From the IMG/VR virus record IMGVR_UViG_3300021185_002017: a DNA stretch of 64,000 nt; one strand, written 5' to 3'. Positions within the stretch are counted from its first letter, which is position 1, and every line of letters starts with the position of its first letter. The DNA is from a virus. Lineage: Duplodnaviria > Caudoviricetes. This document shows positions 20,083-55,295 of this stretch, in pieces. Below the pieces are notes generated by a model. It was not told where the DNA came from and searched no databases. It was given only the letters and a program-made list of their open reading frames with translations. The position numbers and the translations under genes are program-made.

Positions 20083-20162
20083 TATTTATCTGAAAAATTA
20101 AAACTAGGTTTAATACTGAATTACCTATAATTTAAAACCCTGTTTAACAGAACCGATAAATA
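20083..20162. promoter_or_regulatory. Back-to-back late promoters, each with a 16-bp dyad element 7 nt upstream
   Basis: Minus: TTAAACCTAGTTTTAA-N7-GATAAATA (20113 to 20083). Plus: TTAAAACCCTGTTTAA-N7-GATAAATA (20132 to 20162). Confidence 0.75.
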
Positions 20163-20219
20163 TGTAGTTAAAGAAGTAATAGTACATAATGTGCTAGTAC
20201 AAATTTAGGATGATAACAT

Positions 20220-55267: not shown

Positions 55268-55295
55268 AATGTAGTTTAATGAAAAGTGATAAATA
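55264..55295 (+). promoter_or_regulatory. Late promoter with upstream dyad element
   Basis: TTAAAATGTAGTTTAA-N8-GATAAATA just upstream of the ATG at 55302. Confidence 0.75.

Follow-up and report, generated by a model that had tools for sequence, protein, structure and literature searches.

The window analyzed here, a 64-kb stretch of viral DNA, spans the structural genes of a jumbo myovirus, an uncultured marine phage distantly related to T4. It encodes head proteins (portal, prohead protease, a scaffold-like protein, and the major capsid protein), tail and baseplate proteins (a 1276-aa gp29-like, tape-measure-like protein and a PF12322 baseplate hub protein), SbcCD-like gp46/47, a 291-aa gp55-like late sigma factor, and gp53-like, gp5-like, gp25, and gp6-like proteins; a 5616-aa virion protein and fibre-like genes close the list. 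The 5616-aa protein is a single plus-strand ORF whose N terminus matches phrog_10938, a virion structural protein, and its orthologue in the relative G001 has 6539 aa. A megablast comparison of the window with named phages returned no near match, and the nearest named relatives of its gp55 and gp25 are PA5oct and the RaK2/GAP32/CBB group (41-46% identity). These phages are abundant in the sea: the gp55 family has at least 8000 homologues, and window DNA is found in many seawater metagenomes and metatranscriptomes. For comparison we used G001, a 340-kb IMG/VR relative (91% complete, syntenic with the window over ~70 kb), and a set of 142 loci from IMG/VR, each around an orthologue of the hub gene, gp25, or ORF 55302.

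The late promoters of the window resemble those of T4 in their core, an 8-bp box of the TATAAATA type (here GATAAATA), in the presence of a gp55 homologue, and in a predicted start about 6 nt after the box, as judged from many genes with a core-N5-ATG arrangement. G precedes 74% of 182 distinct ATAAATA contexts. Within the window, ATAAATA occurs 13 times against 23.4 +/- 5.2 expected from dinucleotide shuffles, nine of these copies being GATAAATA, and the motif stands before structural genes, nearly all copies of GATAAATA lying directly upstream of a gene; this scarcity and near-confinement look as if selection had removed spurious late promoters. The phage-encoded gp55 differs from that of T4 in size, at 291 aa vs. 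185, and gp33 and gp45 were not detected in the relatives. It shares 43-46% identity with the gp55 proteins of PA5oct and the RaK2 group and has an insertion of ~140 aa and an invariant basic patch, GRKKNP; its AlphaFold model is poor (mean pLDDT 53.9, from a 22-sequence alignment). CBB has been reported to be without gp33 and gp45 and to use the late motif ATAAATA (PMC5259590), and PA5oct relies on host polymerase (PMC7318152).

Four GATAAATA cores in the window are preceded by a second element, TTAA-N8-TTAA, which ends 7 nt before the core at three promoters and 8 nt before it at one (Table 1). The initial annotation had described these four composites, and on re-reading the letters we found all of them exactly as given there. 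T4 late promoters have no conserved sequence at the -35 position (PMC2988020, PMC7892883), in agreement with the annotation's premise that they have no upstream sequence element. Here, the absence of conserved sequence upstream of the box holds for most cores and fails at the baseplate promoters: Unlike in T4, some of the late promoters have a palindrome of 16 bp, at a predicted position of about -36 to -21.

Table 1. Promoter elements and associated genes in the window (positions count from its first letter)
Feature	Position	Strand	Remarks
Portal promoter, not counted as a member	16184-16216	-	GATAAATA with proximal TTTAA at N7; TTAA-N10-TTAA
Tape-measure promoter, core GATAAATA	20083-20090	-	7 nt past dyad; ATG at 20059 is 23 nt further
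Tape-measure promoter, dyad TTAAACCTAGTTTTAA (minus-strand reading)	20098-20113	-	1276-aa gp29-like gene, 16229-20059
Hub promoter, dyad TTAAAACCCTGTTTAA	20132-20147	+	Hub gene, 20220-21089, PF12322; orthologous position kept in relatives
Hub promoter, core GATAAATA	20155-20162	+	7 nt past dyad; predicted start near 20168
Enlarged gp55-like late sigma factor, 291 aa	26205-27080	-	phrog_12791 E 4e-92; phrog_234 E 8e-25
Sigma70-type promoter of gp55 gene	TTGACT 27136-27131, TATAAT 27114-27109	-	Predicted by sequence reading
Degenerate core GGTAAATA	27184-27191	+	Before baseplate operon 27210-33172 (gp53/gp5-like)
gp25 promoter, dyad TTAAAACTCTAGTTAA	33798-33813	+	IMG/VR conservation: family C consensus, perfect-palindrome sites
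gp25 promoter, core GATAAATA	33821-33828	+	7 nt past dyad; gp25 ATG 5 nt on (leaderless geometry)
gp25 operon	33834-55267	+	gp25, 33834-34202; gp6-like, 34206-38408; 5616-aa protein, 38417-55267
ORF 55302 promoter, dyad TTAAAATGTAGTTTAA	55264-55279	+	Family D consensus in 52 distinct relatives
ORF 55302 promoter, core GATAAATA	55288-55295	+	8 nt past dyad; ATG of ORF 55302-55952 6 nt on

The positions given relative to the start of transcription are predicted from the genes that lie closest to their cores. A start codon follows the core at N5-6 in 16 of the 61 cores of G001 and in two of the nine GATAAATA cores of the window (gp25 and ORF 55302), while control 8-mers had no such start codons except for one N5 case. 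These genes have no Shine-Dalgarno sequence (window 33821-33836 and 55288-55304; throughout G001), which implies leaderless late mRNAs; a further core-to-start-codon site, AATAAATA-N5-ATG, lies at 10315-10329 (-). Setting the box at -13 to -6 as in T4 puts the A of the ATG at +1, which fits the T4 geometry, and puts the dyad at the position given above (-37 to -22 for the N8 promoter), with its center near -29. Assembled contigs show no 5' ends, and three metatranscriptome boundaries speak neither for nor against the promoters: Contigs from two studies begin at 20181/20182, 13-14 nt past the predicted hub start; contigs over gp55 end at 27105-27117, near its sigma70 promoter; and a relative's contig crosses the minus-strand promoter to 20111. 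At the last of the four composites, the left arm of the dyad contains the stop codon of the 5616-aa gene.

The initial annotation had made its proposal depend, among other things, on enrichment over an AT-rich background and on positional constraint genome-wide, and both the shuffles and the position counts favor the element. When each core's own upstream 35 nt were permuted, 0.0057 dyad-plus-core composites were expected in the window and four were observed (Poisson P ~5e-11); this local shuffle is conservative, because the dyad's letters stay in the pool. For the N7 composite alone, three were observed vs. 0.01 expected from dinucleotide shuffles. In G001, an independent genome, five composites were observed vs. 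0.39 expected when up to one mismatch and spacings of N7-8 were allowed. TTAA-N8-TTAA occurs nine times in the window, compared with 4-7 copies for other inner spacings (11 at N5), and four of the nine are followed by a core after 7-8 nt. The window has other dyad-like 16-mers (17584, 20805, 23929, 44517, 49359, and others), all in coding DNA and away from any core, which we take as chance. K-mer enrichment inside one genome gives a weak signal, because few promoters bear the site.

The dyad is a true palindrome of 16 bp, with consensus TTAAAACTAGTTTTAA and TTAA-N8-TTAA arms. A matrix built from 25 distinct 16-mers correlates with its own reverse complement at 0.86, with A at position 5 (80%) mirrored by T at position 12 (80%), A at position 6 (68%) by T at position 11 (56%), and C at position 7 (56%) by G at position 10 (28%). 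This symmetry yields the extended consensus TTAAAAC-N2-GTTTTAA, a 7-N2-7 palindrome. Sites keep the TTAA arms exactly and favor C/G at positions 7/10, and the center varies freely. Conservation is stronger in the promoter-distal half (TTAAAAC) than in the proximal one, and the two halves may therefore not be recognized in a strictly symmetric way. Covariation within sites is absent (41 complementary inner pairs vs. 40.9 expected), a pattern expected of a protein site and unlike that of a hairpin or cruciform.

Relatives keep both the element and its place. In the 140 distinct GATAAATA contexts collected from window and relatives, exact TTAA-N8-TTAA precedes the core at N7 in 28, N8 in 11, N6 in three, and N4 in three; no exact copy occurs downstream of the core at any offset. 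Before cores, 45 contexts have an inner spacing of N8, 8 have N9, and at most three scattered ones have N7. Consensus sequences aligned on the core alone, one set per downstream gene and with the motif playing no part in selection, recover the dyad in four independent promoter families (A-D): tATtAA.t.c.gTTTT.ATG.T-core for the hub; TTAAAACTCCtgTTAA-N7-core, also written TTAAAACTCCtgTTAAT-N-core, for the tape measure (family B, 26 distinct relatives); ATTAAAACTa.ttTTaA-N-core for gp25 (family C); and aAttaAAa.....ttTaA..AAAAGT-core for ORF 55302 (family D, 52 distinct relatives). Each of the four sites is kept at its own orthologous locus across 55-85% protein identity, with differing centers and flanks. 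A fifth family (E), a conserved late promoter that lies inside coding DNA before a fibre-region gene, has the dyad in 0 of 14 cases.

The fixed spacing proposed in the initial annotation stands for the window and most relatives, at N7-8, and does not extend to distant hub promoters (N4) or to one gene preceded by the dyad at N9-12. At the hub, GATAAATA occupies the core position in 37 of 37 orthologue upstream regions examined, and this promoter lineage records a 3-bp spacer indel, with the same center AAACCCTG at N7 in the window and at N4 in the relative L006. The element is absent from the most distant IMG/VR relatives, and the gp25 promoters of PA5oct and RaK2 have the core without the dyad. 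The most distant ORF 55302 orthologues (L134, L135, and L137, ~2930-2990) have no TTAA dyad and share instead the upstream pattern cATAATATAC.AATATAAT before GATAAATA.

The distribution of the element among late genes is narrow. G001 has 61 GATAAATA cores, and the dyad stands at five to six of them (~8-10%): five belong to the syntenic baseplate module (tape measure, hub, and the orthologues of 27210, gp25, and ORF 55302), and the sixth lies at N10 before a 104-aa gene. The portal, head, and sheath promoters of G001 are without a dyad. A scan of IMG/VR for the perfect palindrome followed at N4-12 by the core, made without reference to genes, gave at least 120 matches, against one match for the reversed order. 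Among the matches listed are 58 distinct sites, all of them upstream of one of five genes: gp25 in 36 cases, the 27210 orthologue in 14, the hub gene in five, the tape measure in two, and the 104-aa gene in one. Their spacings are N8 (27), N7 (25), N4 (5, all hub), and N11 (1). These counts bear out a second element, constrained in position, at some of the T4-type late promoters. It marks the baseplate module: the hub, the gp29-like tape measure, the gp25/gp6/giant-protein operon, the gene that follows it, and, in relatives, the gp53/gp5 operon. The initial annotation had spoken of a sub-class of tail and baseplate promoters; the sub-class and its baseplate character hold, but not its extension to the tail in general, as the sheath promoter and one fibre promoter lack the dyad. 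One more dyad in G001, TTAAAGTGCCTTTTAA at 235796 (-), is followed after 18 nt (7 nt plus one turn of the helix) by the core of a 208-aa gene, possibly the tube gene, which lies downstream of a sheath-like gene; the dyad may be a further member or chance.

Upstream of the 27210 operon of the window, the 16-mer TTATAATGGTATATAT before the degenerate core is a decayed dyad; the core itself corresponds to GATAAATA in G001 (+290144), which makes the degenerate cores named in the initial annotation plausible, and 14 distinct relatives have a perfect palindrome and GATAAATA at N7 before the orthologous gene. The decay in the window may mean that this lineage has lost the control or has switched to another promoter. 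The portal promoter has its distal TTAAA two bases too far out for a dyad, and the portal promoters of G001 and the relative L031 that we inspected have none. The half-sites that the initial annotation had listed at 1935-, 14138-, and 16184- are present in the window, and the one at the portal gene is not conserved in the 340-kb relative.

We read the dyad as a putative operator for a dimeric, clade-specific regulator centered near -29, which would define a baseplate sub-regulon of T4-type late promoters, and we assign this reading a probability of about 0.6. The palindrome would be a protein-binding site coupled to the gp55-type late promoters of baseplate genes. Its predicted span, about -36 to -21, is the place of the -35 element and spacer in a sigma70 promoter and also the stretch where T4 gp33 would sit on the beta flap; in T4, gp33 binds the flap there and the clamp lies further upstream (PMC2988020, PMC7892883). 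A dimeric DNA-binding protein, for which the symmetric motif makes a fitting candidate binding site, would contact the two half-sites and modulate initiation by gp55-RNA polymerase. Such a regulator would most likely be phage-encoded and specific to the marine clade, and the baseplate genes would form a separately controlled sub-regulon inside the late class. The A-tract/T-tract make-up of the site could contribute intrinsic bending. Sequence comparison shows the element together with its symmetry, placement, conservation, and confinement to baseplate promoters; a bound protein, its dimeric form, and the direction of control are inferred.

As to the sign of control, we lean slightly toward negative control or tuning over activation. 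The lean comes from the perfect consensus cores that dyad promoters keep, from the tolerance of a 3-bp spacer change in one promoter lineage, and from the need for baseplate proteins in few copies. Activation is argued for by a site at the MotA-box/-35 position and by the failure to detect the usual T4 co-activators, and the T4 activator MotA also binds near -30, which makes activation equally possible. The wider picture, in which a globally abundant marine jumbo clade would carry out T4-type late transcription without gp33 and clamp and with a dimeric factor on a palindrome at -30 of every baseplate promoter, is tentative, and we would sooner bet narrowly against it than for it.

Searches in related genomes for a protein that might read the element bear on this reading and on its rivals. 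T4 gp33, PF09116, and PF02916 had no match in G001 and G004, nor PF02916 in G002, all of them weak negatives. In four related phage genomes we found no HTH_3 or HU/IHF domain and no OmpR-type DNA-binding domain (PF00486, Trans_reg_C). The MotA DNA-binding domain PF09158 (MotCF) was found in none of G001, G004, and G002; G003 yielded one 11.8-bit fragment with a stop codon. T4 DsbA (in G001 and G004) and GapR PF10073 (in G001, G004, and G002) gave no match, and the single Sigma70_r4 match in the related genomes (13.9 bits) was not convincing.

Two small proteins were considered as readers, neither of them convincing. The product of an 84-aa ORF at 33420-33674 (-) belongs to no family (best Pfam match Pam3_gp18, E 0.089), and neither the Atlas nor the PDB provided a lead. 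Its gene is divergent from gp25 and has a perfect sigma70 promoter, TTGACA-N16-TATAAT, at 33755-33782 (-), with the -35 element 15 nt from the gp25 dyad; it is kept at this gp25-divergent position in dozens of relatives and is absent from dyad-less distant gp25 loci. The protein is a weak candidate for the reader of the putative operator. The 104-aa protein of G001, a late protein of very wide occurrence, has a confident model (pLDDT 86) with no match among PDB folds. Its gene (L150:2000-2314 (-), equivalent to G001 42000-42314) has a dyad 9-12 nt before the core in near relatives, and the protein recurs in over 600 IMG/VR stretches (60-80% identity), among them contigs of more than 400 kb. 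The leader of the gene forms a conserved hairpin with the Shine-Dalgarno sequence in its loop and arms that covary between relatives.

The polymerase holoenzyme might itself read the dyad as a second promoter element, through the ~140-aa gp55 insertion or through a flap-bound co-factor that replaces sigma region 4 or gp33, with the distal TTAAAA serving as a -35-like hexamer. The distal arm, the better conserved half, would lie at about -36 to -31, some 17-18 bp from a -10-like box, and the enlarged gp55 with its invariant GRKKNP patch would supply a reader in phages where gp33 and the gp45 clamp are not detected, as for CBB (PMC5259590). We consider this improbable. The proposal that the enlarged gp55 is the reader, made in the initial annotation, is not supported by the comparison with PA5oct and the RaK2 group, which share the enlarged protein and whose gp25 promoters have the core without the dyad; roughly nine in ten late promoters of G001 are also dyad-less, and the palindrome suggests a dimer, a symmetry that a monomer would leave unexplained. 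The arm moreover shifts by 3 bp at the N4 hub promoters, and the only trace of sigma region 4 in relatives is the 13.9-bit match.

Comparably improbable is a site for a host regulator, for example a CtrA-like cell-cycle regulator in an alphaproteobacterial host; baseplate synthesis would then be linked to the physiology of the host. The CtrA box, TTAA-N7-TTAA, occurs in promoter regions of phages of Alphaproteobacteria (PMC9437464); the dyad resembles it in having TTAA arms about one helical turn apart in phage promoter regions, and no phage-encoded regulator family was found in the relatives. The N7 spacing of the CtrA box is, however, not that found before the cores, where N8 prevails as counted above (45 contexts, with N9 in 8 and N7 in at most three), and the extension to TTAAAAC-N2-GTTTTAA is foreign to the CtrA motif. 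The dyad also stands at a fixed distance from a late core, whereas CtrA boxes form clusters in one regulatory gap, and it is confined to the phage clade and absent in more distant relatives.

Somewhat less probable still is that no dedicated factor is involved and that A4...T4 forms a bent or deformable segment that alters promoter strength in the manner of a UP element. An AT-rich AAAA-N4-TTTT does lie directly upstream of the core, and the spacers are A-rich too, but what is conserved is the exact TTAA arms and the C/G at positions 7/10 around a free center, the element is limited to one functional gene module, and general AT-richness before other late promoters does not make the motif. Chance in AT-rich intergenic DNA, which the random look of the five other TTAA-N8-TTAA sites in the window might suggest, or recent copying of one promoter cassette is already contradicted by the statistics against local composition (P ~5e-11), by four sites that differ in center and flanks and are each kept at their own locus over 55-85% protein identity, and by the order control (one match vs. 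at least 120), and we give it almost no weight.

Late promoters with a regulator site upstream are familiar from other phages. Those of Mu (C protein) and of P2/P4 (Ogr/Delta) have a dyad-symmetric regulator site just upstream of or overlapping the -35 region; they are sigma70 promoters whose activator is needed by all late operons, whereas here the core is of gp55 type and the dyad marks the baseplate module only. T4 MotA middle promoters are similar in that a phage-specific element near -30 takes the place of the -35 element and marks a promoter class. The MotA box differs as an asymmetric 9-bp motif used by a monomer together with AsiA-remodelled sigma70; the site here is a TTAA palindrome beside a gp55-type late box, and it does not qualify as a MotA box.

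Within T4 late transcription itself, DsbA (GapR-like) is a small dsDNA-binding protein whose A/T-rich sites overlap only two late promoters (PMC2988020), so that sites at only some promoters provide a precedent for sub-classes of T4-type late promoters. DsbA has low affinity, is non-essential, and has no known defined palindrome or regulon, and no DsbA/GapR homologue was found in the relatives here. The weak A/T-rich sites of DsbA, the MotA box at -30, and the dyads of Mu C and P2 Ogr are the nearest precedents. Literature searches on GATAAATA, and on late promoters combined with baseplate genes and inverted repeats, found no prior description. Judged from the sequence comparison, what appears new with respect to T4-like phages is a palindromic operator and its restriction to one assembly module, on a core and sigma factor of T4 type.

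T4 late promoters are the textbook minimal promoter without upstream information, and late genes are treated as one class. The comparative data presented here set a separate cis-element and a coherent baseplate regulon inside that class; if the operator reading is right, the baseplate genes of a very common uncultured marine group would form a late-within-late regulon, and no T4-like phage is known to have this level of control. The 16-bp element offers a precise bait for finding a new phage transcription factor, and it raises the question of how late transcription proceeds in the RaK2/PA5oct-like lineage, where gp33 and gp45 were not found.

Farther out among the relatives (L007-L036, ~2900-3000), the late promoters of the divergent hub and tape-measure genes overlap head-on: The core for the tape measure falls within the 5' leader of the hub gene, and the tape-measure dyad extends over the ribosome-binding site and start codon of the hub gene.
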